The notes: a model not told the origin generated them from the letters alone. Shown: positions 22,415 through 51,863, counted from the stretch's first letter. The stretch: 61,654 nt of DNA from Bacteroidia bacterium (GCA_046594925.1 JBKJQG010000306.1:1-61654), one strand, 5' to 3'. Numbers and translations: made by a program.

Positions 22415-24682
22415 TTAGATCCTGATGCCCAAAACGCTAACGTCATCCACCTGCTCTAATTCTCCGATCCAGTTTGTGAACGCTTCTTCTAAATGAGCAT
22501 GCTGAGTTTCCATGGAAGCGGATGCATTGTCGAGCAAGATGGCTGCCATTTGATTGTATTTGAATTTTTTTCCGAGCGGACCGCCAAACTGATCTGCATA
22601 TCCGTCTGTGAACAAATAAACCAAGTCGCCTGCTTCCAGGTGAATGGTGTGAGTGATGAATGGTCTCCGGTTTTCATTGTAGCCGACATGTTGTTTGACC
22701 GCTTTGATCTCATAAAGAAAATAGTCGCCACTTTCTCTGACCATTTTCAGCGGTTCATTGTCTACCGTCCGGATCGCTTTCCTCTTGCTGATGATCCACA
22801 GCGGATTGTTGGCTCCGGAATAACTCATTAAATTCTTTGTCTTGTTGATAGCACAAAATGCAACGTCCATCCCATCCCTTATACTTCCTTCTTTCTGGTG
22901 GGAACGCAGCAACGTATAAAACTCCTTGCTCACAAAATCCAATCCTGCTCCGGGTTCGTTGATGGATTTTTCTTTTAAGGATTGTTTCAGGAAATTATAA
23001 CCTATGATGCTCATGAATGCTCCCGGAACGCCATGGCCTGTGCAATCTGCCATCGCTACTGCTAACCATTCGTTCCCGTCGGATGCTTCTATCGGTTCAA
23101 TGAAATAAAAATCTCCGCTCACAATATCCTTTGGTTTGTAAAGGATAAAAGAATCCGGGAGCAATTTTTTTACTTCTTCAATGGGTGTGAGGATGGCTTG
23201 CTGAATGCGTTTTGAGTAGTTGATGCTATCGAGGATATCTTTGTTCTTATGCTCGATCGTTTTTTTCTGCTCGCTGATCTCAATGTTGGCTTTTTGCTTC
23301 TGACGATAGTTTCTGAGTAAGAAGATAAACAAGATCAACAATATTCCAGATGCAATAAGAATAATGTTTTTGATCATCTTTTGTTTTTCAAATTCTGCCT
23401 TAGCAAGCTCCTTCTCCTGCATGTGAGCCTGCTCCTGTCTGGCCTTTTCATTGTTCAGTTCCTGCTTGGCAATCTCTATCTGTTGTGTGGATCCGTTGAT
23501 CTCTTTTTCTATCGCTATGTATTTTTTCAAGTAGAAGAACGCCTGATCGTTGTTGCCGGTTTTTTCGTGGATGAGGTAGAGGTTGTGGTATGCCGTTATC
23601 AAATCAGCCTTTCCGCCCAGTTCATGCGCCACCGATTCGGAAAGCTTTGCATACTTCAGCGCCAGGGGATAATTCTCCAGTTCAAAATAGCATTCAAAAA
23701 ATATATTGTAGCACAAGGCCAATCCTCCTTTACGGTTGATCTTTGTACTGATCTGTTCGGCTTCCGTTGCATAGTCTAGCGCTTTGTTGTAGTCTTTTTT
23801 CTTTTGATAGGGAATGGCAATGCAGGTTAATGCTATCGAATAGTGAAAGTCATCGTCGATCTTCCTGGCAAGGGCAAGTGCCTGATCGTATAACACAATT
23901 GCAGAGTCAAGCTGGAAACTTGCTGCGTAGATGTTTCCTTCATCAATAAAAATGCCGGCAAGCGAATAATCGTCCTTCAAAGCTATTGCATATCTTTTAG
24001 CTTTTTGCGTATAGATCATCGCATTCTTAAAGTCTTTCAGACTATAATACGCTATCCCTAAACCTTCAGAGGAATAAATGATGCTGGAGCTGTCGTTTGA
24101 TTTTTCAGCAATCCGCAATGCTTTGTAGTTGTGGTCGATGGCCTTGGTGTAATGGCCCTGCTGATTGTAGATCAGCGACATGTTGTAATATGTTTCGATG
24201 ATGGAAGTAGTGTCCTTCAGCTCAATCGACAACGCTAATTTCTGCCGGTAGTAATTATTCGCCGATTCATATTTTCCTTCATTGAAATTCATTGCACCCA
24301 ATAAATTGTAGTTCTTCGACATCAGGTGCTTGTCTTTTATTTTTCTCGCCTTGTTCAGTGATTTGAACTGGTAGAGTTTTGCATTTGGATAGTCATTGCT
24401 GTAATAATAGATTTTCGCCTCAAGGTATAAGGCATCGGCAACTTTTTGGTCGTCGATGATCTGCAATGCTTTTAATTCGGCTTTGTTCGCATACACCAGA
24501 GCGCTGTCTTTTTGAACTTCGATGTATGCATTCGAAATAGCCAAGTAACGGTTGATCCTTGCGGTGTCGGAAAGGCGAATGTCGGAAAGCTCTTTTTGCA
24601 ACTGAGCGATCTTTCCCTTGTTCTGGGAAAAAGTGCTCGCGCTGAAAAGCAAAAAAGAAAGGAGGAGGCAAAAGCGTTTCAT
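22415..24682 (-). CDS. TPR-repeat sensor protein with a TM helix and a PP2C/SpoIIE phosphatase domain
   Basis: 755 aa. Signal peptide ending TFS-Q, about 8 or more TPR-like units, a coiled coil, TM segment IILIASGILLILFIFLL, and a C-terminal PP2C pattern (SGDFY...MADCTGHGVPGA...TDGYADQ). Confidence 0.85.
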   Translation of the reverse strand: MKRFCLLLSFLLFSASTFSQNKGKIAQLQKELSDIRLSDTARINRYLAISNAYIEVQKDSALVYANKAELKALQIIDDQKVADALYLEAKIYYYSNDYPNAKLYQFKSLNKARKIKDKHLMSKNYNLLGAMNFNEGKYESANNYYRQKLALSIELKDTTSIIETYYNMSLIYNQQGHYTKAIDHNYKALRIAEKSNDSSSIIYSSEGLGIAYYSLKDFKNAMIYTQKAKRYAIALKDDYSLAGIFIDEGNIYAASFQLDSAIVLYDQALALARKIDDDFHYSIALTCIAIPYQKKKDYNKALDYATEAEQISTKINRKGGLALCYNIFFECYFELENYPLALKYAKLSESVAHELGGKADLITAYHNLYLIHEKTGNNDQAFFYLKKYIAIEKEINGSTQQIEIAKQELNNEKARQEQAHMQEKELAKAEFEKQKMIKNIILIASGILLILFIFLLRNYRQKQKANIEISEQKKTIEHKNKDILDSINYSKRIQQAILTPIEEVKKLLPDSFILYKPKDIVSGDFYFIEPIEASDGNEWLAVAMADCTGHGVPGAFMSIIGYNFLKQSLKEKSINEPGAGLDFVSKEFYTLLRSHQKEGSIRDGMDVAFCAINKTKNLMSYSGANNPLWIISKRKAIRTVDNEPLKMVRESGDYFLYEIKAVKQHVGYNENRRPFITHTIHLEAGDLVYLFTDGYADQFGGPLGKKFKYNQMAAILLDNASASMETQHAHLEEAFTNWIGELEQVDDVSVLGIRI

Positions 24683-29983: not shown

Positions 29984-30017
29984 AAAAAAAGCCATTTCGT
30001 GAGAAATGGCTTTTTTT
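29984..30017. terminator. bidirectional-type rho-independent terminator after carB
   Basis: A7, GCCATTTC (29991-29998), loop GTGA, GAAATGGC (30003-30010), T7. Confidence 0.85.
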
Positions 30018-30210
30018 GTGGGGCTCCGGTATTAAAGCGCGTGAATTTCTTTCTCTTTCGTCCAGTTTTTCCTCGAGGTTCGTTTAGGTTGGTAGTTTGT
30101 TTGTCAGTTTGATCTTTAGCCCTCCCAACCACCTACCAAAACATAGCTCTCAACGAATTTTCCACTTCATCTGTTTAGTGCTCCCATAACTTTGTCTCAA
30201 ATTTCAGCAC

Positions 30211-31746
30211 ATGAGAACACTCTTCCTTTTACTCCTTTCTTGTGTTTCTTTCACAGCTCCTTCCCAAACCTGGGATTGGGCAAAAAGGGCAAACACTGCT
30301 ACGTCCAATGCAGGACCAACGCAGATTCGGACGGATGGTTTGGGCAACACCTATTTATATGGCAACACAGTATCTGCCGGGCCATTTGTGACTAAATATG
30401 ATGCTTCTGGAAATAGTCTCTGGTCGGTAAACATTCCTTTTGCTACAAATTCCGTGGTGGACTTTAGGGTCGATAAAGACGGAAACAGCTATTTTCTGGG
30501 CCAGTACAGCGATACGATCAATGTCTTTTTTTATACGTTCATCAGTCAGGGACTGCAGGATTTCTACCTCCTGAAGCTGGATCAGAACGGTTTTCCTGTC
30601 TGGGCAAGAAGTTTTGGCGGAATCTCCTATGAGATACCGGGTTCCATTGCCATTGATGATGACCAGAATATTTTCATGGGTGCCAGCTTCAGAATAATGA
30701 TCGATTTCGATGGTCACATGTTGATGGATTCAATACAAAGGTTCTGCCTGGTAAAACTAGATCCGTCCGGTCATACGATCTGGGCCACCGCGGGGGATAC
30801 AACCTTCTGTGCAGTGCAATTGATCGAGCTGGACAAGCAAGCAAATCCCTACATCATTGGCTCGAACAAAAGCCTCGGCGGTCCGACCTCTACCTTCATT
30901 TCGAAGTTCGACAGTACCGGAAATCTGCTTTCCTATTCCATACACTGGGGAATTTATAATGAAGTTTATTCTTTTGCAGTCAGCGATTCAGGAAATATTT
31001 TTCTGCTGCACAATTCGGGTGGCCATTATGACATTATCCCCGATCTCGTAAAATATGATGCGGGAATGAATATGATCTGGCATAAAGAGCTGTCCGGGAT
31101 GAGCGTATGCTATGGGTTCGGGCTCGATCGTTACCGGGGAGTATTTCTTGACGAAAATGAAAATGCTTATGTAGGAGGAATGGTCGGTCATTCCACGTGC
31201 AATGACTCGGTATACTTTGAGGGGCAGTTGATCTACATTGGCCAATACAGTGTTCCAGCTGTTATCGCATTGAATACTTCCGGTACGATGCTCTGGACCA
31301 AAACTGCAACAGCAACCAATGACGACGATATAAGGACGATGGCAAAAGACAAAGACGGGAACCTGATGGTTGCCGGGATATTCAACACGGGGTATGCAGC
31401 CGATCACATGATGTTTGATTCACATACATTGAACAGCAGTGGAGCCTGGCAACAGATCTTTCTCGCGAAATTAAATGTCGTTGGATTCACAACAGGAATA
31501 TCTGAAGCAACTTCTTTAAACACAATCGAAATTTTCCCAAACCCTTCTTCCGGAATTTTTACACTTCGAATGAATCATTCTGCGGCAAAAGTATGCGTGC
31601 GCGATGTGATGGGCAGGTGCGTATTACAGAAAGAGTGCAAGCACGAAATAAATGAGATTGATCTTTCTGCTAATTCCAAAGGCGTTTACTTTATGGAAGT
31701 GCTAGCGGAAGGTAAAAGTGTGGTGAAGAAAATCGTACTACAATAG
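30211..31746 (+). CDS. T9SS-sorted beta-propeller (SBBP-like) repeat protein, paralog 1 of 5
   Basis: 511 aa. Signal peptide ending APS-QTWDWAKR. Repeated GN.Y..G / KLD..G..W / SFGG blades. C-terminal IFPNPSSGIFTL...GVYFMEVLAEGKSVVKKIVLQ T9SS CTD. TAACTTTG box at 30187-30194. Confidence 0.8.
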   Translation: MRTLFLLLLSCVSFTAPSQTWDWAKRANTATSNAGPTQIRTDGLGNTYLYGNTVSAGPFVTKYDASGNSLWSVNIPFATNSVVDFRVDKDGNSYFLGQYSDTINVFFYTFISQGLQDFYLLKLDQNGFPVWARSFGGISYEIPGSIAIDDDQNIFMGASFRIMIDFDGHMLMDSIQRFCLVKLDPSGHTIWATAGDTTFCAVQLIELDKQANPYIIGSNKSLGGPTSTFISKFDSTGNLLSYSIHWGIYNEVYSFAVSDSGNIFLLHNSGGHYDIIPDLVKYDAGMNMIWHKELSGMSVCYGFGLDRYRGVFLDENENAYVGGMVGHSTCNDSVYFEGQLIYIGQYSVPAVIALNTSGTMLWTKTATATNDDDIRTMAKDKDGNLMVAGIFNTGYAADHMMFDSHTLNSSGAWQQIFLAKLNVVGFTTGISEATSLNTIEIFPNPSSGIFTLRMNHSAAKVCVRDVMGRCVLQKECKHEINEIDLSANSKGVYFMEVLAEGKSVVKKIVLQ

Positions 31747-31756
31747 AACATACAAC

Positions 31757-33292
31757 ATGAAAAAAATTACACTCTTCTTCTTTTGCTTTGTGTGCATCAC
31801 GACATCCGCTCAAACCTGGGAATGGGCAAGAAAGGCAGATGCTACAACTTCCGGCGAAGTCCCCAGAAAGATCTTAACGGATAGCCTTGGAAATAGCTAC
31901 TTTCGTGGATACTGTAACGGCTGTCAATATGGAAGTACAACAATAGGATCTTCTCAATTTGTAACAAAATTCAATTCTTCAGGAGGGGTTGTTTGGGCGA
32001 TGCCTATTGATCAGAACCCCATAGACTTTAAAGTAGACAAGGATGGAAATTCCTATTTCTTTGGTAGTTATACCGGCACACAGAATATATTCTCCTATAC
32101 ATTTACCAGCAATGGTTCTGTCGATTTGTATCCCGTGAAGTTAGACGCCGCCGGCAGTCCTTTATGGGGAAGAAGTTTTGGAGGAGTAGGCGGAGAAAAC
32201 CCGGGAAAAATAGGCATCGATCAAGATCTGAATGTTTACTTAACCGGAAACTTCAAGACGGCTATTTCTTTTGATGCCTACACGCTTATCGATTCGACAA
32301 CTCAGTTCTTTCTGGCAAAATTAGACGCATCCGGTAATACAGTATGGGCTACTGCGGCCGATCCATCGTTTGCGATCGGAGATTTAATTGTGCCGGATAA
32401 ACATTCCAATCTTTATTTGGTTGGTTTCAATGATTCTTATGGTTGGTTTGTTGCAAAATTTGATAACGCAGGAAATCTGCTTTTTCACACCGTCTTATTC
32501 GGAATGTATGATTATGTCCCAACAATGGCCGTCGGCGAATTCGGAAATGTATTCTTGCTTCACAATGGTATTGGGCATTATGGCTTTTTACCCATTCTTG
32601 TAAAATATGACTCCTTGATGAACCAGCAATGGAGTCGGACGATAGGAACCCATTACGGATGTTATCAATATGAAGCAGAGATCTCTTTGGATGGTGCGGA
32701 AAATATCTATGTTGGCGGAACCCTCGGCGGCGGATACTGCTTTCAGGATTCGGTTTACTTTTTTGGCCAGTTAGCTTACGTTGGCGACTTAAGCGTTCCT
32801 TCAGTTGCGAAGTTTAGTACGTCCGGAAATTTGCTCTGGACAAAAGCGGCGGAATCTTCGAATCTTGACGCTATCTACACTATGTCCATGGATAGCGACG
32901 GAAATTTGGTTGTAGCCGGAATATTCAATTGGGCCTATACTATAAATGATCACATCGTGTTTGATTCCTACGCTTTGGATAATGACGGCGCCTTTCAGCA
33001 GTCTTTTGTGGCGAAATTAAATCCTTCCGCGCTTGCCACGTCCTTCCCGCAAATTTCATCAGTTGATCAAATTCAAATTTTCCCAAATCCTTCTTCCGGA
33101 ATTTTTACACTGCTCGTGAATAATTCAAATGCAAAAGTCTGCGTGCGTGATGTAATGGGCAGATGCATATTGCAAAAAGAGTGCAGGAATGAAGCAAGTG
33201 ATATTGATCTGTCTGCTGAGGGTAAAGGCATTTACTTTCTGGAAGTAATGGCAGAAGATAAAAGTGTGGTGAAGAAAATAGTGATACAATAA
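31757..33292 (+). CDS. T9SS-sorted beta-propeller repeat protein, paralog 2 of 5
   Basis: 511 aa with the same architecture. Starts 10 nt after paralog 1. Confidence 0.8.
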   Translation: MKKITLFFFCFVCITTSAQTWEWARKADATTSGEVPRKILTDSLGNSYFRGYCNGCQYGSTTIGSSQFVTKFNSSGGVVWAMPIDQNPIDFKVDKDGNSYFFGSYTGTQNIFSYTFTSNGSVDLYPVKLDAAGSPLWGRSFGGVGGENPGKIGIDQDLNVYLTGNFKTAISFDAYTLIDSTTQFFLAKLDASGNTVWATAADPSFAIGDLIVPDKHSNLYLVGFNDSYGWFVAKFDNAGNLLFHTVLFGMYDYVPTMAVGEFGNVFLLHNGIGHYGFLPILVKYDSLMNQQWSRTIGTHYGCYQYEAEISLDGAENIYVGGTLGGGYCFQDSVYFFGQLAYVGDLSVPSVAKFSTSGNLLWTKAAESSNLDAIYTMSMDSDGNLVVAGIFNWAYTINDHIVFDSYALDNDGAFQQSFVAKLNPSALATSFPQISSVDQIQIFPNPSSGIFTLLVNNSNAKVCVRDVMGRCILQKECRNEASDIDLSAEGKGIYFLEVMAEDKSVVKKIVIQ

Positions 33293-33393
33293 AAACGTAC
33301 AACATGAAAGCAATCTTATTCTTTTTATTTTCTTTTGGCTGCGTCTCAGCATCCGCTCAAACCTGGGAATGGGCAAGAAAGGCCGATGCAACT
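33259..33393 (+). repeat. 135-bp junction segment (end of paralog 2 CTD + spacer + paralog 3 signal peptide)
   Basis: 134/135 nt identical to 34830-34964. The single mismatch is G at 33338 versus T at 34909. Confidence 0.9.
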
Positions 33394-34863
33394 GCTGCGA
33401 TCGAAACGCCTACGGAAGTGATGAGTGATGGTCTTGGAAATACATACCTGTTCGGAACCGGATCCGGTGGTTCTCAGTATGGCAGTACCGTATTGTCTCC
33501 TGGAAAATTTCTGGTCAAACTTAATTCATCGGGTAATGTGATCTGGGCAAAGAATATTCCATTCAGCATCAGTTCTACTTCCGTTTTTATAAGCGACTAT
33601 TATTTGGATGAATATGGGAACAGCTATTTCCTCGGACAATTCTATGGAACGTTTACAGTCGAGTCGTTTACATTCACGAGCAATGGGGTGGCTGATGTTT
33701 TTGTAGTCAAGCTGGATCCGGCAGGAAACCCCTTGTGGGGAAAATCTTTTGGTGGAACCGGCTCAGAGACTCCTGGCAGAATCATTGCCGATGGTGAAGA
33801 GAATGTTTACTTCGATGGAGGTTTTCAGGATTCTGTTTCTTTTGGTCCCTCAACAATATTTGATACAACAAGCACTTTCTTTTTGACCAAATTGGATGCA
33901 GCGGGAAATGTGGCTTGGGCAACTGCCGGCCATAACGATTTCGAGTTTGGCGGACAACTTATTTTGGACGACAACGCAAACATTTACGTTGTTGGAAGTG
34001 CAAGTTCATTTTTTTATTACTTCATTGCAAAGTTTGACAACAATGGCAACTTATTATTTCATCAAAACAAATGGGGAAGCTATGATTTTGTTCCAACCTT
34101 AAAATTCAGCCAAGCCGGGAATATATTTCTATTACATAACGGGGGCGGACATTACGGTTATGTGCCTATTCTTGCTAAGTATGACACGCTCATGAATCTG
34201 CAATGGAGCAGGGGTATTGGTACGTATTACGGATGTTATCAATTTGATGCCGGCGTTTTTCTGGATGAGTTTGAAAATGTATACGTTGGTGGAACGATCG
34301 GAAATCAATACTGTTACAGTGATTCCGTTTATTTTCAAGGCACTCTTGCTTACATCGGAGAACACGGTGTGCCTGCCATCGCTAAGTTTGATACTTGGGG
34401 AAATCATATTTGGACAAAAACGGCACTTTCCTCGGATTACGATGTAACCAATGCCATGGATATTGATAAGGATGGAAACCTTATCATTGCCGGTATTTTT
34501 AATGCTTCAGGGCCTGATGATACTCTTAGGTTCGATTCACATATCTTATACAACGACGGCAACTATAGCCAGATCTTTATCGCGAAATTGAACCCCAATG
34601 GGGTTCCGACAGGTCACACAGAAATTGTTTCATCTGAACTGATAAACATTTTTCCAAATCCATCTTCCGGAATATTTACACTGCGCATGAATAATTCAAA
34701 CGCGAAAGTCTGCGTGCGCGATGTGATGGGGAGATGCATATTAAAGCAAGGGTGCAAGAACGAAATAAATGAGATAGATCTTTCTGCTAATTCCAAAGGC
34801 GTTTACTTTATTGAAGTGCTAGCGGAAGGTAAAAGTGTGGTGAAGAAAATAGTGATACAATAA
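33304..34863 (+). CDS. T9SS-sorted beta-propeller repeat protein, paralog 3 of 5
   Basis: 519 aa with the same architecture. Starts 11 nt after paralog 2. Confidence 0.8.
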   Translation: MKAILFFLFSFGCVSASAQTWEWARKADATAAIETPTEVMSDGLGNTYLFGTGSGGSQYGSTVLSPGKFLVKLNSSGNVIWAKNIPFSISSTSVFISDYYLDEYGNSYFLGQFYGTFTVESFTFTSNGVADVFVVKLDPAGNPLWGKSFGGTGSETPGRIIADGEENVYFDGGFQDSVSFGPSTIFDTTSTFFLTKLDAAGNVAWATAGHNDFEFGGQLILDDNANIYVVGSASSFFYYFIAKFDNNGNLLFHQNKWGSYDFVPTLKFSQAGNIFLLHNGGGHYGYVPILAKYDTLMNLQWSRGIGTYYGCYQFDAGVFLDEFENVYVGGTIGNQYCYSDSVYFQGTLAYIGEHGVPAIAKFDTWGNHIWTKTALSSDYDVTNAMDIDKDGNLIIAGIFNASGPDDTLRFDSHILYNDGNYSQIFIAKLNPNGVPTGHTEIVSSELINIFPNPSSGIFTLRMNNSNAKVCVRDVMGRCILKQGCKNEINEIDLSANSKGVYFIEVLAEGKSVVKKIVIQ

Positions 34864-34964
34864 AAACGTACAACATGAAAGCAATCTTATTCTTTTTATT
34901 TTCTTTTGTCTGCGTCTCAGCATCCGCTCAAACCTGGGAATGGGCAAGAAAGGCCGATGCAACT
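34830..34964 (+). repeat. 135-bp junction segment (end of paralog 3 CTD + spacer + paralog 4 signal peptide)
   Basis: Direct repeat of 33259-33393. Confidence 0.9.
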
Positions 34965-36422
34965 TCTGCCGAAGAAGGTTCGAAAAAAATCAGAACCGAT
35001 AGTTATGGGAACATTTATATGATGAGCGTTGGCACCGGCAATACCACCTATGGCAGTACAACCTTGCCTCCGGGTCTTTTTCTCGTGAAATTCGCGCCCT
35101 CCGGATTAGTTTTGTGGGCGACAAGTTTACCTTTTCCTTTCACCGGATTCATGGATTTTAACGTGGATGAAGCGGGGAACAGTTATTTCCTCAGCGTTTA
35201 TAATACTTCCTTAAGTGCGTACTCTTTTAATTTTACCAGCAACGGAGAGGCCGATGTTTACATTTTTAAGTTCGATCCATCCGGGAATGCACTTTGGGGA
35301 AGAAGTTTTGGCGGGACAGGACAAGACATTTCCGGAACCATTGCCATTGATCGCGATCAAAATATTTACTTCGACGGAAGTTTTAAAACGTCCATATCTT
35401 TTGACACAGATACACTGAGTGCCTCGCCAGCAGGAATGTTCCTCGTAAAATTAAATTCTTCGGGTAACACCATTTGGGCAACCAAAGGCGATAACTCATT
35501 TGAGTTTGGAAAATTAATCACACTCGATAAAGATCAAAACCCTTATGTGATTGGTTTTACTCCACTTCCTCCAGAAGATATTTTTATTGCAAAATTTGAT
35601 GTACATGGAAATCTGCTTTCTCATTCCATAGTATTTGGAATCTATGATTTCGTGCCGTCCATGGCGATCAGTGAATCGGGAAATATCTATCTCATTCATA
35701 ATGGAGGTGGGCACTATCATTTTGTGCCTATACTGGTGAAGTACGATTCAATGATGAACGAACAGTGGAGTAAGACCATAGGAACCGGGTATGGATGTTA
35801 TAATTTCAGGGAAGGATTATTCCTGGACGAGTCCGAGAACATATTTGTCGCGGGCGATTTCGGAGGCCAGTACTGCTCTTACGATTCCGTTTATTTTGAA
35901 GGCGAGTTGGCATACGTCGGCGAAAATAGCGTTCCTGCCATCGCTATGTATTCCGCTTCTGGAAATATGATGTGGTTCAGCACGGCAGCTTCCGCCGATC
36001 TGGATTGGACAGTGAGTCTGGCTCGGGATGCCAGTGGCGGCTTGATCATTGCGGGAGGGTTCAATACAATGGGGGTAACGGACACGCTCAGTTTCGGTGC
36101 ACATGCCTTAGTCAATGATGGGAGTTGGAGGCAGAGTTTTCTTGCTAAGTTTAACCCCTCCGCACTTAGCACCGCTTTTTCTGAATTATCTTTCAACGAC
36201 GTCTACATTTTTCCCAATCCTTCTTCCGGAATATTTACCCTACAGATGAATGGTTCGTCTGCGAAAATCTGCGTAAGGGATGTAATGGGTAGATGTGTTT
36301 TTCAAAAAGACTGCAAAAGCGAAACTCTGGAGATCGACCTGTCTGCGCAAAGTAAAGGCATTTACTTCCTGGAAGTTTTGGCTGAAGGTAAACGCGAAGT
36401 AAAAAAAATTGTCTTGCAATAA
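34875..36422 (+). CDS. T9SS-sorted beta-propeller repeat protein, paralog 4 of 5
   Basis: 515 aa with the same architecture. The first 30 aa differ from paralog 3 at one residue. Confidence 0.8.
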   Translation: MKAILFFLFSFVCVSASAQTWEWARKADATSAEEGSKKIRTDSYGNIYMMSVGTGNTTYGSTTLPPGLFLVKFAPSGLVLWATSLPFPFTGFMDFNVDEAGNSYFLSVYNTSLSAYSFNFTSNGEADVYIFKFDPSGNALWGRSFGGTGQDISGTIAIDRDQNIYFDGSFKTSISFDTDTLSASPAGMFLVKLNSSGNTIWATKGDNSFEFGKLITLDKDQNPYVIGFTPLPPEDIFIAKFDVHGNLLSHSIVFGIYDFVPSMAISESGNIYLIHNGGGHYHFVPILVKYDSMMNEQWSKTIGTGYGCYNFREGLFLDESENIFVAGDFGGQYCSYDSVYFEGELAYVGENSVPAIAMYSASGNMMWFSTAASADLDWTVSLARDASGGLIIAGGFNTMGVTDTLSFGAHALVNDGSWRQSFLAKFNPSALSTAFSELSFNDVYIFPNPSSGIFTLQMNGSSAKICVRDVMGRCVFQKDCKSETLEIDLSAQSKGIYFLEVLAEGKREVKKIVLQ

Positions 36423-36442
36423 AAAATTTAAAACAATAAATC

Positions 36443-38005
36443 ATGAAATCATTCTCCCTCCTTCTATTTTCAATTGTCTGCATGTCTGTATCCGCCCAAT
36501 CCTGGGAATGGGCAAGAAAGGCAGATGCGACTGCATCCTATGAATCAGCACTGAATACCAAGACCGATGGCTTTGGAAACATTTATTTGCGGGGAAATAG
36601 TGGCGGTGGCTCACAATACGGCAGTACAGTTTTAGGAGCGGGTGAATTTTTAGTAAAGTTTGACCCTAACGGTTCAGTGATCTGGGCGAAAAACATCAAC
36701 TTCTTCTGCCCAAGTTCTTATCACGTTTCCTGCTTCAATGTGGATGTAGCAGGAAATAGTTATTACACAGGACAGTTTCGCAACACATTGAGCGTCTTGT
36801 CATATAATTTAGTTAGTCATGGAGAAGAAGATGTTTTTATATTAAAACTGGATCCCTCCGGAAATCCGGTTTTGGGAAAGAACTATGGAGGACCGAGCGG
36901 TGAGGCTCCCGGTTCGATTTATGCCGATGAGTATGAAAATATATACTTTGATGGAGGATTCGGGAATACAATCTCGTTTGATTCGCATACCTTGTATGAT
37001 TCAACCGGAACGTTCTTCTTAGCAAAATTGAATCCCGCCGGAAATGCCTTATGGGCAACAACCGGGCATAGTTCATTCGCATACGGGCAGTTGATCGTGC
37101 CGGATAAGCACTCAAACATTTATGTTGTGGGATATGCTACATCCTATTATGGCTATTTCATTTCAAAGTTTGACGCCAATGGAAATCTACTTTTTCGCAA
37201 AACCGAATGGGGAATGTATGATTACGTTCCCGCGTTGGTTGTGAGCGACCTCGGGAATATCTTTTTGCTTCACAACGGGGCCGGCCATTATGCTTTTGTT
37301 CCCATTCTTTGTAAATATGATTCTTTGATGAACATGCAGTGGAGCAAGGGCATTGGAACATATTACGGATGTTATCAATTTTCCGCTGGGGTCGTCGTTG
37401 ATGAATCGGAAAATGTATTTGTCGGAGGAGGTTTGGGTGGCTACTATTGCCACGACGATTCTGTCTATTTCGATGGCGCATTGGCCTATATTGGGGATAG
37501 AAGTGTTCCCACTCTGGCGATGTTCAACACTTCTGGAAATCTTGTCTGGATCAAGTCGGCAAAGTCTTCCGATTACGATGGGGTAGGTGCGATGTGCATG
37601 GATAAAGACGGTAGCTTGATCGCCGCAGGAGGGCTTAATGGGTCAGTGGCAAACGATACTTTGGTTTTCGATGGAATCACACTAATCAATGATGGGAGCT
37701 GGCGGCAAATCTTTCTCTCGAAATTAAATCCCTCATCTGTTGCAACTGACTTAGCCGAACTGAATCCCCTTGATTTTATTAACGTCTTTCCGAATCCTTC
37801 TTCAGGATTATTTACTTTACGAATGAATAAGTCCCATGCGGAAGCAAGCGTAATTGTTAGTGATGTAATGGGCAGATGCATATTAAAAAAAGAGTGCAAG
37901 AATGAAACACATGAGATTGACCTGTCAGCACAAGGCAAAGGTGTTTACTTTTTGGAAGTAATAGCTGAGGGAAAAAAGGTAGTGAAGAAAATTGTGGTGC
38001 AATAA
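36443..38005 (+). CDS. T9SS-sorted beta-propeller repeat protein, paralog 5 of 5
   Basis: 520 aa with the same architecture. CTD variant VFPNPSSGLFTL...AEASVIVSDVMGRC. Confidence 0.8.
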   Translation: MKSFSLLLFSIVCMSVSAQSWEWARKADATASYESALNTKTDGFGNIYLRGNSGGGSQYGSTVLGAGEFLVKFDPNGSVIWAKNINFFCPSSYHVSCFNVDVAGNSYYTGQFRNTLSVLSYNLVSHGEEDVFILKLDPSGNPVLGKNYGGPSGEAPGSIYADEYENIYFDGGFGNTISFDSHTLYDSTGTFFLAKLNPAGNALWATTGHSSFAYGQLIVPDKHSNIYVVGYATSYYGYFISKFDANGNLLFRKTEWGMYDYVPALVVSDLGNIFLLHNGAGHYAFVPILCKYDSLMNMQWSKGIGTYYGCYQFSAGVVVDESENVFVGGGLGGYYCHDDSVYFDGALAYIGDRSVPTLAMFNTSGNLVWIKSAKSSDYDGVGAMCMDKDGSLIAAGGLNGSVANDTLVFDGITLINDGSWRQIFLSKLNPSSVATDLAELNPLDFINVFPNPSSGLFTLRMNKSHAEASVIVSDVMGRCILKKECKNETHEIDLSAQGKGVYFLEVIAEGKKVVKKIVVQ

Positions 38006-39014: not shown

Positions 39015-39677
39015 TTAGAATTTACGTGTATAGCCTATATAAACTCCAAAAGCTCCTTTTGTTTGAAGCGGTGTGACATAATCCACCACTAGCTTTTCGT
39101 TCGACAAATTGGGCGCGATGACTTTTGCTTCCATTGTAAAGTTCCAGCGCTTTCCTGTAAAGCTATGTCCGACCATGGGCATGAAGATCCAATGATTCTC
39201 TTGGCGCATTCCGTATCCTCGTGTTTTAGCCAGCTCGAACCAGTTGTCGGCTCCGACATAGAAATAATTTTTCCGTTTGCCGTATTCCCACATCGCATTC
39301 AAAGCCAGTTGAGGGTAGATCTTTTTGGCGTCTTTGTTTTTGTAAATGAAGTTGATGACCGGACTCACACTCAAGGCCGGAAGATAGTTCTTTTGTTTCG
39401 TGAACTGCTTCGTTCCGCCCAGCTCGATCTGGAAATTGCCATAAAGAGCAGAAGTAATATTCACAGAAGAAAAAACGGTGAGGCTGCTGTCAATCCCATA
39501 TCCATAATTTGCAGTCAGAAAGGGGATGGGAACGGTTGCCGTTCCATATTTAAGCAGCGGTCCGCCCAAAGACAAATTGGCTGCATGTTGATTTTTAGCC
39601 AAAGGTTTTACAAAGCGGGCAGGCGCACAGGAAAAAAGGAATGAAATAAAAAGGTAAAACGGAATCCTTGAACGCAT
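39015..39677 (-). CDS. putative outer-membrane beta-barrel protein
   Basis: 220 aa. Signal peptide, alternating-hydrophobic strands, C-terminal ...GYTRKF (terminal Phe). Its stop lies 3 nt upstream of the hydrolase start. Confidence 0.5.
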   Translation of the reverse strand: MRSRIPFYLFISFLFSCAPARFVKPLAKNQHAANLSLGGPLLKYGTATVPIPFLTANYGYGIDSSLTVFSSVNITSALYGNFQIELGGTKQFTKQKNYLPALSVSPVINFIYKNKDAKKIYPQLALNAMWEYGKRKNYFYVGADNWFELAKTRGYGMRQENHWIFMPMVGHSFTGKRWNFTMEAKVIAPNLSNEKLVVDYVTPLQTKGAFGVYIGYTRKF

Positions 39678-44448: not shown

Positions 44449-44488
44449 TAAAAAATTCCGCCCGGGAAATCGTGGCGGATTTTTTTTT
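44449..44488. terminator. bidirectional rho-independent terminator
   Basis: A-rich run, TCCGCC (44457-44462), 11-nt loop, GGCGGA, T9. Lies between convergent yfhO and wzx. Confidence 0.75.
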
Positions 44489-45968
44489 AGATGTTGATCG
44501 AAAACCGTTTCAGGTTCTTTCGGATCTTGTTGTTAAGTTCCGGAGCTGCATTCATTTTAAACAGCAGGATCAGGAACAAACCTCCTACCAGACTGCTTCT
44601 GATGGCAATGTCAATGTATTTATCCGAAAACGCCGGAATGAAAAAGCTCGGAAGGATCGCTATCCCGGCTATCAAGATGATTTTGATTGAATTCAAATCG
44701 TAAGGCTGCATTCCGAATTTTACTTTCAGGAACAGAAAACGGATGATGTTATTGGCCGAAAGCGTAATGGCCGTGGCCAAAGCCGACCCGATAATACCAT
44801 AAATCGGAATAAAGATGAGGTTGGCAAGAATGATTACTCCCACCATTAAAAGCGTAAAGAAAGTGTCGTAACGATAATATTTTGAATTCGCGATGATCAC
44901 CTGGTTGATTCCTGTCGACATTTCTACCAGATAACCCACACTCAAAATGATGATCACATTTTTTCCGGATGCATAAGCTTCAGGGATAAGGTGCATGATG
45001 TTGTTGATGTTGGCGACTACACCAATGAATAAAAGAATTCCGATTGCCATTTGGTTGTTGCAGGATTTTTTATACAAAGAGGCCACTTCGATGAAATCTT
45101 CTTTTTTAAATGCTTCGGATACAACGCTGGTCATGATGCGGTAGAGTGAGCGGGCAGGAATTAGCATAATTGCGCCGATCTGAATCGCTATTCCATAGAT
45201 CCCGGTTTTTTCTTCCCCGAGCATAGAGTTGACCATGATCGTATCAATGTTCAGGATGATGGCTCCGGCTCCACCCGTTATGATGGCGTACGATCCTAAT
45301 TTGAGCATGTCCGTCTTTAGTTCCTTGGTCATGAACCCCTTCACTGGCCTGATGTGCCATTCGCCCTGCCGGATAATGAAGAACAGTAAAATGAAAGTGG
45401 GAATGCAAATGATCAATATGTAGAGGAAGATAAAGATGCTGAAATCGATGAGTTTTAAAAAGTAGACACCCAATAAGATCAGAATAAGAATACGCTGAAG
45501 GAAGTCTTTACTGAACGATCCAATGACGGAACTAAATCCTGCTCTTAAGTAACTGTCGAAGATGTTAAAAAAAATCGTGAAGAAAGTTAAGGGGAGCAAA
45601 TAGAACAAGTAGGTGACAAAAAGAGGTGATTTGGCGGCGCTATCTTCTATCAGTTTTGGCTGTATGAAAATGAAAACAATGCAGCATAAGAGAAACCCTA
45701 TAGCAGAAACAAGCATAGCGTAGAATAGAAATCCGTTGTGCCCTTTCTCTTTGTCCCTGAAATAAGGAAAAAATCGGTTGGTGACAGAAACGAATCCCAA
45801 ATTGGAGAATTGAGCGAATAAAGCAGCATAGGAGATTAATAATCCCCGTGCACCATTTTCTGCGGGACTTAGTAAATGTGCGATCCACATTACCGTCAGA
45901 AAGCCCAGCCCAGCCCCTAGATAGGAGTAGATGGCATTCTTGGTAGCTTGTTTTTCTATGATGCCCAA
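44487..45968 (-). CDS. Wzx-type oligosaccharide flippase (MOP superfamily), copy 1
   Basis: 493 aa with about 12-14 TM helices. N-terminus is paralogous to the ORF at 59688. Confidence 0.75.
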   Translation of the reverse strand: MGIIEKQATKNAIYSYLGAGLGFLTVMWIAHLLSPAENGARGLLISYAALFAQFSNLGFVSVTNRFFPYFRDKEKGHNGFLFYAMLVSAIGFLLCCIVFIFIQPKLIEDSAAKSPLFVTYLFYLLPLTFFTIFFNIFDSYLRAGFSSVIGSFSKDFLQRILILILLGVYFLKLIDFSIFIFLYILIICIPTFILLFFIIRQGEWHIRPVKGFMTKELKTDMLKLGSYAIITGGAGAIILNIDTIMVNSMLGEEKTGIYGIAIQIGAIMLIPARSLYRIMTSVVSEAFKKEDFIEVASLYKKSCNNQMAIGILLFIGVVANINNIMHLIPEAYASGKNVIIILSVGYLVEMSTGINQVIIANSKYYRYDTFFTLLMVGVIILANLIFIPIYGIIGSALATAITLSANNIIRFLFLKVKFGMQPYDLNSIKIILIAGIAILPSFFIPAFSDKYIDIAIRSSLVGGLFLILLFKMNAAPELNNKIRKNLKRFSINI

Positions 45969-45975
45969 TGTGTAC

Positions 45976-46686
45976 CTAGTTTATGCTTCTAACTATAACA
46001 AAAGCTTCTGCATACGATTTTCCAACGGCAACACCCCATCGCTGTGCTTGGATCTTCAATGCTTCTGGTGATCTTGGATGCGGATATTTTCTCTTTTCAA
46101 ATTCATAGGATTCCATTCCTTTGATTTTTGCCTGGATGTTTTTTTCTGAGACTTCAAAAAATAAATTCGGAATAAAATGTCTTGGATCTGTAGATGCTCT
46201 CCATTCTGTTCCGGAAGGTGTTTCAAAAGCGATGATCGTTGAAACTTTTTCGTTTTCCATCGGGCGAGTCGCGGTAATAACCGCATCAAATGTTTTCTGA
46301 TGGTCGATGTTCAGGTCGCCGCCATGGTGTGTGAAGATCACATCGGGCTTGAATTCATTTTTTTCTTTTTCAACGACTTTCACAATGTCAAGAAGATTCA
46401 CGTCGTCGAAACGGTTGTCCGGAAATTCGTAAATGCTCACGGTTTTATATCCTATGGCGTCTTTCGCTGAGTGAATGTTCTTTTTATGTGTTTCCAGTTC
46501 TTTTTTCCAGGCTTCAGAATCGCGCTGATCGGAGCGGGAAGTAATGCCTTCTCCGAGGATGACTACGTGGGTAATCACGTTGTATTCCGTTATCAGTTTG
46601 TGCATGGTTGCACCCAGTCCTAAAAGTTCATCATCAGGATGAGCCACTACGATCATGATCCGTTTGTCTTTTAATGATTGTAACAT
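45976..46686 (-). CDS. PIG-L/LmbE-family N-deacetylase
   Basis: 236 aa; VVAHPDDELLG and HHGGDLNIDH motifs. Confidence 0.85.
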   Translation of the reverse strand: MLQSLKDKRIMIVVAHPDDELLGLGATMHKLITEYNVITHVVILGEGITSRSDQRDSEAWKKELETHKKNIHSAKDAIGYKTVSIYEFPDNRFDDVNLLDIVKVVEKEKNEFKPDVIFTHHGGDLNIDHQKTFDAVITATRPMENEKVSTIIAFETPSGTEWRASTDPRHFIPNLFFEVSEKNIQAKIKGMESYEFEKRKYPHPRSPEALKIQAQRWGVAVGKSYAEAFVIVRSIN

Positions 46687-46696
46687 TTTCTGTTAA

Positions 46697-47431
46697 TTAT
46701 AGTTGCTGCCAGGCTCTCACTCTCGGGATCGCCGGGCATACATCTTGGTTTATACTGGATAATTGAACGGTTTGATTGTCTGAATTTATGAAAAAATCTT
46801 CGTCTGTGCAAAATGCTGTCAGTGGCTGTTCTTTCAGGTAGCAAGCTGCTGTATCTATTCCGATCTTATAGCCGTCGTAATACACAGAATAAAAGCCTGT
46901 GTGCCCAAAAATTACGATCTTATCAAAATACTTTGTTTTCTGTTTTATGAAATCGTAACGGTTCAGCATTAATTTTTCTGCCGGGATCTTCTCAATGCTT
47001 GTATCATAGAGTTCAGGAGGAATTCCGCTATGTGTCATCACGTATTTATCCGTCTGATGATAATTTTTCAGTGAGGCAAAGAATGATCCGAACTCAGAAA
47101 ATAGTTTTTTCTTCGTTTCTGAAAGGGTTGCGTTCTTGCCGACCGACAGCACCGTGTTTTTTCCGCCGTATCGGATCAAGTGAGCTGCATGTTCATCGTT
47201 CTCACTGTTCAGTTGTTCCCAATAGTATTCATGGTTTCCGCGTAAAAAGACGCAGGAATATTCTTTGGACAATTGAACCAGATGCTCGAGAACCGCATAA
47301 GCGTCTTCTCCTTTGTCGACATAATCGCCAATGAATACGAAGGAGGGAGCCTTATCCTGCGCGATGATGTTTTTGAGAAGCAATTTCAATTTGCTAATCT
47401 CTCCGTGTATGTCGCCGATTACATAGTTCAT
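46697..47431 (-). CDS. calcineurin-like metallophosphoesterase (PPP/ApaH-like)
   Basis: 244 aa; GDIHG, GDYVDKG, GNHE, GHTG motifs. Confidence 0.85.
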   Translation of the reverse strand: MNYVIGDIHGEISKLKLLLKNIIAQDKAPSFVFIGDYVDKGEDAYAVLEHLVQLSKEYSCVFLRGNHEYYWEQLNSENDEHAAHLIRYGGKNTVLSVGKNATLSETKKKLFSEFGSFFASLKNYHQTDKYVMTHSGIPPELYDTSIEKIPAEKLMLNRYDFIKQKTKYFDKIVIFGHTGFYSVYYDGYKIGIDTAACYLKEQPLTAFCTDEDFFINSDNQTVQLSSINQDVCPAIPRVRAWQQL

Positions 47432-48318
47432 GCGGAGATGCTATTTAAATATCCTTTAAGGGAATGCTCATAATTGTCGTTGATAGTGACGTATTTCCTG
47501 ATCTTACTGTTGTCCAGATAAAAGTCTACATATCCTTTGTTGCCTTCTACACGTATTTCGGATGCCGAATCCAATGCTTTTTTTATCAGGGAGGCGCACT
47601 CAATGAAGTCTGTTTGCCTTCCGTAACTTAGATTGAAAACTTCTATAGAATGCTTCCAGTCGTATTTCTCAATGAAGCTGTTAAGGTAGTCGGAAAGGTC
47701 ATTTACATGGATCGTCTCCCAATATCCCAAAGATTCTGAGTTGAGAACTACTGCTTCATTTTTTAAACATTTTAGGGCTGTGTTGTAAATATACCCCGAA
47801 GTTCTGTCCCCTCCGTATATTCCCGGGGGCCGAAGGATCACTCCTTTTGGGCCGCTGGATTTGCAGTGAAAGCTAAAAATGTTCTCTCCAAGCAATTTGC
47901 TTAAGCCGTATGTACTCAATGGATCCAGTTCTCCGTCTTCCTTTACCGGTAAACTGTTGTTCTTTCCGTAAACAGTCATTGAAGAGACATAAATTATTTT
48001 TTCGGTCAGATGGTGCTCTTTTACGAAAGCCAGAAAAGAGCCCAATCCCAGCGTGTCCAGCTGAATGTATTCTTCTTTTAGTTCGGTCGTTCCCAATCCT
48101 TTTAAGGTAGAGGCCAGGATGATGATTTCTTCGTAGTGTCGCGAACGGATATTTTCAAATGTTTTTTTGTCGAGCAAGTCCAACTTAATCGATTCGTCTT
48201 TGCCTGTAGTGGAAGTAAAAAAAATGGAACGACTGGAAATTGAATTTCGGAGATGGGAACCCAGATACCCGGATCCACCTACAAGCAATATGTTTTTGCT
48301 CTTATTCATAGAAAACAT
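47428..48318 (-). CDS. NAD-dependent epimerase/dehydratase (extended SDR)
   Basis: 296 aa; VGGSGYLGSHL, YGLSK. The start could instead be the Met at 48309. Confidence 0.8.
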   Translation of the reverse strand: MFSMNKSKNILLVGGSGYLGSHLRNSISSRSIFFTSTTGKDESIKLDLLDKKTFENIRSRHYEEIIILASTLKGLGTTELKEEYIQLDTLGLGSFLAFVKEHHLTEKIIYVSSMTVYGKNNSLPVKEDGELDPLSTYGLSKLLGENIFSFHCKSSGPKGVILRPPGIYGGDRTSGYIYNTALKCLKNEAVVLNSESLGYWETIHVNDLSDYLNSFIEKYDWKHSIEVFNLSYGRQTDFIECASLIKKALDSASEIRVEGNKGYVDFYLDNSKIRKYVTINDNYEHSLKGYLNSISA

Positions 48319-49246
48319 TTTCCCATCTTCTGTGAAGGATCAAATTTTCTTTGGGCCTGATCAAGGGGCCGTCGTACTTTTTATCGGAGTAGGTCAGCCA
48401 TAATCCGACTTCATCAATGCCATCTTCATAACTCATGATGGAAGTGGTAGAGAAACGAGGATTTATTTCAAATATTTTTATTGCTCCTTCTGGAGTGATG
48501 TATAATTGAATATTAATGGGGCCTTTGGGTTTCAAAGTCTTGTTTATTTCCAATGCGATCTTTTCGATTTCAGCATTTGTTTCAGTGATTGCCTTGATGG
48601 TGATTCCTTTTTTACTCAGTATTTTCCGGCAACTGATGTAAATGACATCGTCCAGATTATTGATCAGCACTCCTACGGTGTATTCCTGTCCCTGGATGCA
48701 TTCCTGAACGAGTAGTTCTTTTGGTTGATATTTTTCCAACACGTAGTAAGCTTCCAGTTCTTGTTTGGAACTGATCTTGCGGATGCCTCTGCTTCCTCTT
48801 CCCGAAATGGGTTTTACAAAATATTCTTTGCCGCCTTCCCACTTGAACTCATCACCGGTCCAGGTTGCGATGGAAGAAATCTTTTTGGCGTCCAATTCTT
48901 TCATCAGCAGGTCTTTTCTCATGGCAAGCAGACAAAAGGCCAGATCTGGAGAAAGGAGTCTTAAGGATGGGACTTGTTTTTTTATTTCGTGGGCGACTTC
49001 TATTTCTTCATCTATCAAAGGAATGTAAACATCAATCGCGTTTTTCTCAATGATGTTCTTGATGAAGGGAATGTAGGCCGGGTCACGGACAAGAGGAGCA
49101 GGAAAAAAATTATAAGATGGATAAAGTTTTGTTAATGAGCTGTCGGCATCGACATAGAACAATTCATAGGAGTCTTTTAGCTTTTCATGAAGGTAGGGGA
49201 ACAATGATCCGCCCAGGCCCGACAACAGCAACTTTGTTTTAATCAT
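48302..49246 (-). CDS. ATP-grasp domain protein
   Basis: 314 aa; FVKPISGRGSRGI, LVQECIQGQEYTV, IFEINPRFS pattern. Confidence 0.75.
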   Translation of the reverse strand: MIKTKLLLSGLGGSLFPYLHEKLKDSYELFYVDADSSLTKLYPSYNFFPAPLVRDPAYIPFIKNIIEKNAIDVYIPLIDEEIEVAHEIKKQVPSLRLLSPDLAFCLLAMRKDLLMKELDAKKISSIATWTGDEFKWEGGKEYFVKPISGRGSRGIRKISSKQELEAYYVLEKYQPKELLVQECIQGQEYTVGVLINNLDDVIYISCRKILSKKGITIKAITETNAEIEKIALEINKTLKPKGPINIQLYITPEGAIKIFEINPRFSTTSIMSYEDGIDEVGLWLTYSDKKYDGPLIRPKENLILHRRWENVFYE

Positions 49247-50277
49247 AACATTTCCCAGGTTATTGGTTCATCATCTTCAATGTTCTTCTGGGCGGTTTTT
49301 CCGACAACTAAATGGATCTGTGAAGGATGTATTCCAAGCCCCGGACGCTTGATGATGATGTCATCATTAGTGATTACCTGGCCCTTACTTATTTTATTCC
49401 TCGCAATGATGCTTCTTCTGGCTTTCGTGAACAATTCTTGTTCTTCAGCGCGTGGACCGTTCTTCAAACCATCTCCGAAAGCACTTTCAATATCCCTGAT
49501 CTTACCGATCATCGCTTTCAGTTCTTCCGGTTCGATCGCAAAATTATGATCAGGACCTGGAAGCTGACGTCCGAGTGTATAATGTTTTTCGATCACTTTT
49601 GCTCCCATTGCGACAGCTGCACAAGGAATGTGATCTCCTAAAGTATGATCTGAATATCCGGTGATCACTCCAAACATGTTGGCCATCGTGCTCATGGAAT
49701 TCAGGTTTGACAAATGTGCGGGTGCCGGGTAAAGCGAAGTACATTGAAGAACTATGATCTGGTCATTGTTGTTTTGTCTGCAGATATTTATCGCGGTTTC
49801 AATTTCTGCCGTCGTCGACATACCCGTTGAGAACATCACTGCTTTGCCGGTCTTGGCGATTGTTTCCACCAGGCGAATGTCCACCATGTCGTAGGACGCG
49901 ATCTTGATGACCGGCATTCCTACGGAGACAGCTATTTCTATCGCTTCTTTATCGCAGGGTGAATCTAAAAAATCAATGTTTAGTTTATCACAGAGGGGAG
50001 CTAACTTTGAATGCCAGCTGCGGTCGATCTCCAGTTTCTCTATCAATTCATAAATGCCTTCTTTATAGAGATCGATCTTGGGTGTCCTTTTGGAATAGTG
50101 ATCTTTTGCTTTGAACGTTTGAAATTTTACGGCATTGGCACCTGCATTTTTTGCTTTTTCAATTAACTCACAGGCCATGTCGAAATTTCCATTGTGATTG
50201 CTGCCAATTTCAGCAATTACATAGCAAGGCTGGCCGGAACCGATTTCGGAAAATTTTGTTTTGATCGTTTTTTTCAT
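49243..50277 (-). CDS. pseI: NeuB-family nonulosonic acid synthase (pseudaminic acid synthase-like) with SAF domain
   Basis: 344 aa; CYVIAEIGSNHNGNFDMA..AGANAVKFQTF; C-terminal SAF-like segment. Assignment to Pse rather than Neu or Leg rests on the neighbouring pseB/pseG/pseH. Confidence 0.8.
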   Translation of the reverse strand: MKKTIKTKFSEIGSGQPCYVIAEIGSNHNGNFDMACELIEKAKNAGANAVKFQTFKAKDHYSKRTPKIDLYKEGIYELIEKLEIDRSWHSKLAPLCDKLNIDFLDSPCDKEAIEIAVSVGMPVIKIASYDMVDIRLVETIAKTGKAVMFSTGMSTTAEIETAINICRQNNNDQIIVLQCTSLYPAPAHLSNLNSMSTMANMFGVITGYSDHTLGDHIPCAAVAMGAKVIEKHYTLGRQLPGPDHNFAIEPEELKAMIGKIRDIESAFGDGLKNGPRAEEQELFTKARRSIIARNKISKGQVITNDDIIIKRPGLGIHPSQIHLVVGKTAQKNIEDDEPITWEML

Positions 50278-51857: not shown

Positions 51858-51863
51858 GTTCGT

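Follow-up and report, generated by a model that had tools for sequence, protein, structure and literature searches.

The five tandem genes G1–G5, which lie in a 61,654-nt stretch of DNA (the window; GCA_046594925.1, JBKJQG010000306.1:1-61654) from an uncultured Bacteroidia lineage, encode propeller proteins that resemble several described systems in part. The closest solved structure is the C-terminal domain of CylK, which together with BrtB represents the cyanobacterial alkyl-halide-activating enzymes (PDB 7RON, 7FH6) and has blade motifs in common with G1–G5. CylK needs Arg105, Tyr473 and Asp440 (PMC8916777). LipL53 (LIC12099), an SBBP lipoprotein of Leptospira, was reported to be an adhesin for the extracellular matrix, with laminin, collagen IV and fibronectin as ligands (PMC4388678); its family consists of surface-exposed SBBP propellers, and the corresponding model NF047494 is the best NCBIfam match to the propeller of G1–G5. 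A likeness in gene organization, which is an analogy only, is offered by the KLIKK proteases of Tannerella forsythia. These are type IX secretion system (T9SS) cargo encoded by clustered genes, with differing functional domains and a nearly identical C-terminal sorting domain (CTD), and a close relative lacks the array (PMC4404884). The same architecture as in G1–G5, including a QxWxWA strand, is found in Bacteroidota proteins annotated as 'SBBP repeat-containing / T9SS type A sorting domain-containing' (PF06739 + PF18962, about 520–570 aa). To our knowledge, no member of this SBBP-propeller T9SS cargo has an assigned function.

The array departs from each of these systems. CylK acts in cytoplasmic biosynthesis, whereas the products of G1–G5 are predicted to be secreted via the T9SS. 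LipL53 is a spirochaete lipoprotein without a T9SS CTD, while in G1–G5 a putative signal peptidase I site precedes a Gln residue. The functional domains of the KLIKK proteases belong to unrelated protease classes on a common N-/C-terminal frame, whereas the array holds paralogous propellers; the CTD ends in KLIKK in the former and in KKIV(L/I/V)Q in the latter, and no potempin-like inhibitor genes are present between G1 and G5. Compared with the other members of their own clade, the five are arranged in tandem, whereas the relatives are single-copy at the loci that could be examined. The reading that we favor, with moderate confidence, is that the locus is an accessory island of five anciently duplicated, exported propellers with a non-enzymatic binding function, the junctions of which have been homogenized by recombination.

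The gene structure is regular. The five same-strand open reading frames (ORFs) of 511–520 aa, 10–20 nt apart, were recovered at exactly the coordinates given in the original prediction, and the spacers measure 10, 11, 11 and 20 nt. The genes and the regions within them that matter below are as follows.

30211-31746, + strand: G1, 511 aa; putative signal peptide, seven-bladed SBBP propeller and T9SS type A CTD; the most divergent copy
31576..31745, + strand: CTD coding region of G1; DNA 89% identical to the G3 CTD at 34693-34862, the cores of this pair being about 55% identical
31757-33292, + strand: G2, 511 aa; same architecture as G1
33259..33393, + strand: first copy of the junction tract; final 34 nt of the G2 CTD, stop codon, 11-nt spacer and first 90 nt of G3
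33304-34863, + strand: G3, 519 aa; architecture as G1; the copy modeled with AlphaFold2
34135..34335, + strand: sub-family signature region of G3 in blades 5–6; HNGGGHY (278–284), YGCY (Cys311), Cys337 and DSVYF (340–344)
34830..34964, + strand: second copy of the junction tract; final 34 nt of the G3 CTD, stop codon, 11-nt spacer and first 90 nt of G4
34875-36422, + strand: G4, 515 aa; same architecture as G1
36443-38005, + strand: G5, 520 aa; architecture as G1; its core is nearest to that of G3

A tblastn search with all five as queries revealed no further copy or fragment in the 61,654-nt window. The GC content of the array (0.40–0.45) is that of its flanks.

The evidence for recombination comes from the contrast between gene ends and cores. 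Over the whole proteins, the pairwise identity of G1–G5 is 49–60% at the amino-acid level and 57–64% at the nucleotide level, in agreement with the earlier estimate that roughly half of the residues differ. The mean nucleotide identity in 30-codon sliding windows was 0.75 in the first, 0.50–0.67 in the core and 0.70–0.76 in the CTD, i.e., about 75% at either end versus about 55% in the core. The ends had been described as near-identical in DNA. The sliding-window alignment showed that the contrast is real but had been overstated: near-identity applies to certain pairs only (the G3/G4 junction and the G1/G3 CTD), and the overall mean is about 75%. The proportion of synonymous differences (pS, Nei-Gojobori method) is saturated in the core of every pair (0.76–0.83), whereas it amounts to 0.31–0.39 in the CTDs of G1, G2 and G3, and to 0 in the first 30 codons of G3/G4. 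A permutation test for runs of concordant variable sites singled out codons 12–30 of G3/G4 (p = 2e-4) and the CTDs of G1/G3 (p = 1e-3), which are about 88–93% identical at the DNA level. When G3 and G4 were anchored on their start codons, a single difference was found from offset −45 to +89, so that 134 of 135 positions are identical, and this tract spans the gene boundary including the non-coding spacer. It reaches from the end of the CTD across stop codon and spacer to codon 30 of the following gene, and the unit that is homogenized is therefore the inter-gene junction.

Neighbor-joining trees with bootstrap, built separately for core and CTD, were incongruent. In the core tree, G3 and G5 grouped together (70%) and the monophyly of the five was weak (43%) with long branches; in the CTD tree, the five were monophyletic (100%) with short branches and G1 grouped with G3 (83%). 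Identity ratios point in the same direction. At a core identity of about 0.50, the CTD identity is 0.75 within the array, 0.42 between the array and its relatives and 0.40 among relatives, and the CTD/core identity ratio is 1.51, 0.88 and 0.75, respectively. The ratio of 0.75 implies that the CTD of single-copy relatives evolves faster than the propeller, whereas it is held similar within the array, where the five copies share 68–86% CTD identity. CTDs can also be replaced, as judged from the relatives P0005 (locus L013) and P0007 (L014), whose cores are 90% identical and whose CTDs are 53% identical; this suggests that linker and CTD were exchanged on a nearly unchanged core. P0007 has about 128 extra residues between propeller and CTD. 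Taken together, four independent results (the pS contrast, the cross-boundary tract, the tree incongruence and the CTD/core ratios) show that CTDs and junctions are homogenized by recombination and not merely constrained. The proposed concerted evolution of export signals thus stands for the CTDs on the basis of pS, trees and ratios, and does not stand for the mature N-terminal motif, which is not an export signal (see below). For the cores, an average nonsynonymous divergence (dN) of 0.34–0.50 against saturated synonymous divergence (dS) is indicative of purifying selection. A dN/dS test for diversifying selection was dropped on account of the saturated core pS, since positive selection cannot be assessed when dS is saturated.

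The arrangement of the array is not unusual. In a survey of loci that included distant members, taken from the matches listed of a metagenome scan with the sub-family alignment, a hidden Markov model (HMM) scan of every fetched locus detected SBBP+CTD genes arranged in tandem on one strand in 11 of 61 loci, several of them with homogenized CTDs. L005 holds four copies with 3-nt spacers and L049 three plus two copies. Neighbors in L049 share 37% overall protein identity and 95.8% CTD DNA identity over 212 nt; for neighbors in L034, the overall identity is 50%, with 85.6% over 284 nt in the CTD DNA and 82% over 101 nt at the 5' end. No contrast between ends and core was seen in the arrays of L024, L068 and L072. 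The locus is therefore a tidy yet not unprecedented case of a common protein family. Hundreds of family matches were obtained at E < 1e-40, and the superfamily comprises 31,389 clusters at E ≤ 1e-30 in a representative library. The closest matches to G3 outside the window are P0005–P0014 (42–57% identical), and species-representative genomes contained only relatives that are at most 28% identical. At the examined loci of clade relatives, the genes are single-copy and lie in unrelated housekeeping neighborhoods, and no conserved operon partner was found among them. The neighbor of P0009 is an unrelated DUF5122+CTD gene that shares the CTD only.

The array is an accessory island of 7.8 kb, which related genomes lack at the corresponding site. 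Orthologues of Tgt and carB that are 93–97% identical are known from metagenome-assembled genomes, and the DNA identity to the relatives is about 82% for carB and about 70% for the flanks, which is roughly genus-level. Synteny in these relatives extends upstream over ACCA, GHMP kinase, LptF/G, Tgt, a family 2 glycosyltransferase, an extracytoplasmic function sigma factor, GidB, an ATP-binding cassette (ABC) transporter, L34 and carB, and downstream over an alpha/beta hydrolase, a 220-aa ORF, a short-chain dehydrogenase/reductase (SDR), a 2-oxoglutarate (2OG) oxygenase, YfhO and Polysacc_synt. In the contigs of all syntenic relatives, carB is directly followed by the hydrolase gene. DNA homology to the relatives ends at 29905 and resumes near 38131, and no SBBP remnant was found at their empty site. 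In L099 and L100, carB and the hydrolase gene are separated by a clean gap of 151 nt. In L096–L098, a repeat of about 150 nt flanks runs of N at the site, which makes absence of the array probable there, not certain. The borders of the island carry no mobility signatures, with no flanking direct repeats longer than 8 nt and no integrase or transposase. Divergence among the five cores exceeds that of the flanking orthologues, from which it follows that the array either had diversified before it was acquired or has been lost from the relatives. The site behind carB has the look of a hotspot at which content varies. SBBP/CTD genes also appear to be strain-variable in this lineage, because the otherwise identical contigs L100 and L099 differ at one end: L100 has a distant SBBP+CTD gene at 60-1742 (26–29% identical to G1–G5), and L099 has ACCA and a 112-aa ORF at 383-1745. 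As further observations at this site, the gap between carB and the hydrolase gene contains tandem copies of the repeat of about 150 nt, interrupted by the N runs, in L096 (12818-13377), L097 (10579-10898) and L098 (12818-13077), and in L101 carB is followed by a different gene, which encodes a 1134-aa Reg_prop/Y_Y_Y-SpoIIE protein.

The assignment of G1–G5 to paralogous SBBP-type propellers with T9SS type A CTDs was borne out by HMM searches, an AlphaFold2 model and Foldseek. PF18962 (Por_Secre_tail) matches all five copies with 49–55 bits (cut-off 27; E 1e-13 to 1e-15), and TIGR04183 (type A) with 44–53 bits (cut-off 23), both up to the last residue. The presence of the sorting domain was thereby confirmed, while its length had to be corrected from about 85 to about 72–75 aa. 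The expected match to PF06739 (SBBP) was only partly obtained: the Pfam cut-off is exceeded in G1 (28.2), G2 (24.8) and G4 (21.0), the score of G5 (14.2) lies below it and G3 gave no match. Most relatives in the family carry PF06739, and the SBBP lipoprotein model NF047494 matches all five copies with E values of 1e-23 to 1e-27. Membership in the LipL53 family itself, for which NF047494 serves as an equivalog model, was rejected, as the scores of 82–94 bits are far from the cut-off of 400 and a lipobox is lacking. The blade motif K-x-D-x-x-G-N occurs seven times per propeller, and the consensus blade of the family reads D..GN.Y.TG.F...(loop)...D.FI.KYD..GN..WAK..GG. A profile of 83 family members matched the propeller domain of CylK (E 8.5e-65) and the solved T9SS CTDs 8glk_D, 8glj_D and 5hfs_A (E about 1e-14).

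The same 83-member alignment was used to model G3 with AlphaFold2 (mean predicted local distance difference test score, pLDDT, 91.5; predicted template modeling score, pTM, 0.81). The model shows a propeller of 7 × 4 strands (residues 20–430), a disordered or flexible linker (435 to 444 or 446) and a CTD beta-sandwich (447–519), the latter with seven strands at 447–518 and a pLDDT of about 86–96. A Foldseek search of the PDB with this model returned CylK as the top match (E 4e-19, 23% identity), followed by generic propellers (NHL, BtuG, PHL lectin). In the CTD, the motifs PNPxxG, GxYF and KKI are general type A features.

The signal peptides were judged by eye. Their n, h and c regions are recognizable and the −3/−1 rule is satisfied (e.g., ASA|QTW). 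Cleavage was assigned by eye before Gln from this rule and from the Q-rule of Bacteroidetes, according to which Gln at +1 is typical of signal peptidase I substrates (PMC5837995). A lipobox is absent from the five copies, and the predicted site is of the signal peptidase I type. The mature N-terminus that follows, QTWEWARKA, had been proposed as an export signal, whereas its role is structural. It corresponds to the final strand of the blade motif (GNxxWAKxxGG); in the G3 model the N-terminal strand (20–26) lies beside the C strand of blade 7. Based on this match and this pairing, Q(T/S)WEWA(R/K)KA is no targeting signal: it supplies blade 7 with its outermost strand and thereby closes the propeller in a 'velcro' manner. 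QxWxWA is kept in relatives down to 29% overall identity.

The strong match to CylK raised the question of CylK-type catalysis, which was ruled out by mapping residues and by the missing N-terminal domain. CylK, in the native numbering taken from the H391A entry, and the five copies were aligned to one family HMM. In G1–G5, respectively, E374 corresponds to I/N/T/I/A, H391 to S/N/G/S/G, D440 to A/I/F/F/Y and Y473 to T/-/F/E/-, the loop around the last being deleted in most members. The N-terminal Ca2+-binding domain of CylK, which contains Arg105, has no equivalent, as the propeller starts at about residue 20, right after the signal peptide. When the five sequences alone were used as a profile, the match to CylK split into register-shifted blades, which places the homology at the level of the repeat unit. 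There is no CylC-type halogenase or biosynthetic gene among the annotated neighbors of the array, and none of the five copies matches an enzyme family in Pfam or NCBIfam. The claim that no enzymatic motif is present therefore holds as far as it was tested on CylK, whose catalytic apparatus is absent.

Diversification of a binding surface, the other half of the original proposal, found weak support. Top and bottom faces were assigned from strand topology and the description of the CylK top face, not from coordinates, and on this basis the mean pairwise identity among the five copies is 0.34 in the inner A strands, 0.40 in the top-face (B-C and D-A) loops of blades 1–4 and 7, 0.60 in the top-face loops of blades 5–6 and 0.61 in the bottom GN turns. 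Variability is thus somewhat higher in the A strands and the top loops of blades 1–4 and 7, but it is diffuse, and the patch in blades 5–6 is invariant. Identity by structural element revealed one conserved patch and diffuse divergence, and no hypervariable surface among the five copies. The patch belongs to a signature of a small clade (n = 15; the five copies and P0005–P0015 as listed), with HNxGHY in the B-C loop of blade 5 and with YGCY (Cys311), Cys337 and DSxYF in blade 6 loops. The next relatives (at most 39% identity) lack this signature. The clade is also defined by a shortened B-C loop in blade 4. Across its proteins, which are 42–60% identical overall, the patch is invariant except for His278, which is kept in 14 of 15 and is replaced by Arg in P0014.

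Two features upstream of G1 bear on transcription.

29984..30017, + strand: inverted repeat with perfect 15-nt arms (29984-29998 / 30003-30017), followed by a T run; probable carB terminator
30187..30194, + strand: TAACTTTG, which fits the −7 promoter box of Bacteroidetes (TAnnTTTG) and is located 17 nt upstream of the start codon of G1; candidate single promoter, weak

The inverted repeat probably terminates carB and separates it from the array. The TAACTTTG element is the sole TAnnTTTG box near the array; no such box occurs in the inter-gene spacers, which are too short to hold promoters. The terminator, the single box upstream of G1 and the short spacers are together consistent with co-transcription. 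Scans for sigma-70 promoters and terminators gave counts at or below the shuffled expectation, and no Rfam family reached its gathering score on either strand of the window.

From these data the following course of events can be proposed. The five genes would probably form a joint transcript that starts from a single promoter located after the carB terminator, and each product would be exported by the Sec pathway and cleaved by signal peptidase I before the N-terminal Gln. The mature protein is predicted to fold into a seven-bladed SBBP propeller, with QTWEWARKA closing the ring by pairing with blade 7. The type A CTD would carry the product over the outer membrane via a T9SS, which is presumably present in the source genome, judging from its phylum and from the CTDs. 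By analogy with studied type A cargo, the CTD would then be removed and the propeller attached to the cell surface or released. The propellers would most likely serve as non-enzymatic binding modules of an adhesin- or lectin-like kind, which share the top-face patch in blades 5–6 and differ over the rest of the surface. Binding is favored over catalysis here because the CylK positions are unconserved, the Arg105 domain is absent and LipL53 was reported to bind matrix. Finally, the junctions, each of which takes in the CTD's 3' end, the spacer, the signal peptide and the closing strand, have been homogenized repeatedly by gene conversion or unequal recombination, which keeps the export tags alike and provides in-frame sites for the gain or loss of whole propeller cassettes.

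Several observations weigh against this explanation. None of the annotated ORFs of the window encodes T9SS machinery. The neighbors of the array are unrelated housekeeping genes (carB, alpha/beta hydrolase, SDR, 2OG oxygenase and others), and the genes of close relatives stand in unrelated contexts as well. The candidate promoter is a single match to a box that is not enriched in the window (50 found versus 53 expected). The spread of identity between surface classes is modest (0.34–0.64), and the classes depend on faces that were assigned by topology. The invariant patch (HNGxGHY, DSxYF), rich in His, Asn, Asp, Ser and Tyr, could be a catalytic or metal site instead of a binding site. In CTD pairs with G4 or G5, pS is 0.57–0.84, i.e., near saturation; homogenization is thus patchy, and part of the conservation of the ends is accounted for by purifying selection alone. 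The last point could be extended to the view that the conservation of the ends stems purely from selection on signal peptide, closing strand and CTD, with old duplicates diverging passively and no gene conversion at all. QxWxWA is indeed conserved family-wide for structural reasons, the CTD motifs listed above are common to type A domains, and the G4 and G5 values fit. However, selection on protein sequence accounts neither for the low CTD pS of G1/G2/G3 and the identical 5' ends of G3/G4 next to saturated cores, nor for a tract that includes a non-coding spacer, the incongruent trees or the faster CTD evolution in single-copy relatives. This view is largely refuted by pS, trees, ratios and the tract, and we regard it as very unlikely. 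A further suggestion is that the junction repeats serve programmed variation, in which frequent recombination expands, contracts and reshuffles cassettes and yields varied surface repertoires, as in a contingency locus. Crossovers in the in-frame, cross-boundary tracts would cleanly delete or duplicate entire genes, relatives lack the island in a lineage with strain-variable SBBP/CTD genes (L099 versus L100), and other arrays show the same pattern. Nevertheless, the homology tracts are few and short (at most 135 nt at >95%), an invertase, recombinase or silent-cassette organization is lacking, each of the five copies is a full gene that has a start codon of its own and ordinary tandem-array dynamics account for the same facts, so that programmed variation seems improbable. 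An assembly artefact, either of the array or of the junction identities, is conceivable in that the window is a whole metagenomic contig of 61,654 bases, repeats can mislead assemblers and related scaffolds are gapped at this site. Yet cores that are about 55% identical in DNA are not confusable, the repeated tracts are shorter than a read pair, the five ORFs are intact and regularly spaced and the GC content matches the flanks; we consider such an artefact extremely unlikely.

The alternative that touches function is that the five are secreted enzymes, with the top-face patch of blades 5–6 (His278, Asn279, His283, Tyr284, Asp340, Ser341, Tyr343 and a putative Cys311–Cys337 disulfide) as an active or metal site and with paralogs that differ in substrate range. 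The sole solved close relative of the propeller, CylK, is an enzyme whose active site likewise lies on the top face, many hydrolases are found among T9SS cargoes and the patch is kept nearly without exception at 42–60% overall identity while being absent from the next relatives. On the other hand, the catalytic positions of CylK are taken by unconserved, mostly hydrophobic residues or deletions and its essential N-terminal domain is missing. The failure to match an enzyme family and the absence of biosynthetic or substrate-related neighbors add to this, P0014 has Arg at the position of His278 and an invariant patch fits a shared ligand or partner equally well. An enzymatic role thus appears rather doubtful. 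A more specific form of it, in which the clade-only patch HNxGHY/Cys-Cys/DSxYF would be the active site of an unrecognized class of secreted enzymes on a lone SBBP propeller, without the second domain of CylK, is a long shot. If it were true, the five paralogs would represent a substrate-diversified enzyme battery that is kept as a recombining cassette array.

With exported binding propellers as the preferred explanation, the locus does not overturn current understanding. SBBP-propeller T9SS cargo is very numerous in environmental Bacteroidota, with tens of thousands of sequence clusters, and the locus provides a clean, quantified case in which ancient, diverged cores carry export tags that recombination across the junctions keeps uniform, and the array as a whole behaves like accessory DNA. 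The recurrence in unrelated arrays points to concerted evolution of sorting domains as a general rule for tandemly arranged T9SS cargo genes. This matters for the prediction of cargo from CTDs and for phylogenies based on full-length proteins. The invariant patch of blades 5–6 is a concrete target for mutagenesis.

Some further features of the window were recorded. A minus-strand gene (22415-24682) for a 754-aa protein with tetratricopeptide repeats and a SpoIIE phosphatase separates GidB from the ABC transporter. In L096–L100, this gene is lacking and GidB and the ABC transporter are adjacent, which makes it a second indel in the region. Two large proteins of 1238 aa (5421-9137, + strand) and 783 aa (11392-13746, − strand) show only a weak match to Peptidase_M1, and the ORFs at 9733-10728 and 10792-11388 have no Pfam match. 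The 220-aa ORF downstream of the array (39015-39677, − strand) has a signal-peptide-like N-terminus and no Pfam match, and adjoins the hydrolase gene in all syntenic relatives. A polysaccharide/nonulosonic-acid cluster (44487-58729, − strand) comprises Polysacc_synt, PIG-L, a metallophosphoesterase, an epimerase, ATP-grasp, NeuB, GNAT and a cytidylyltransferase. Its content differs in the relatives; in L096, for example, Polysacc_synt is followed by an epimerase and DegT.

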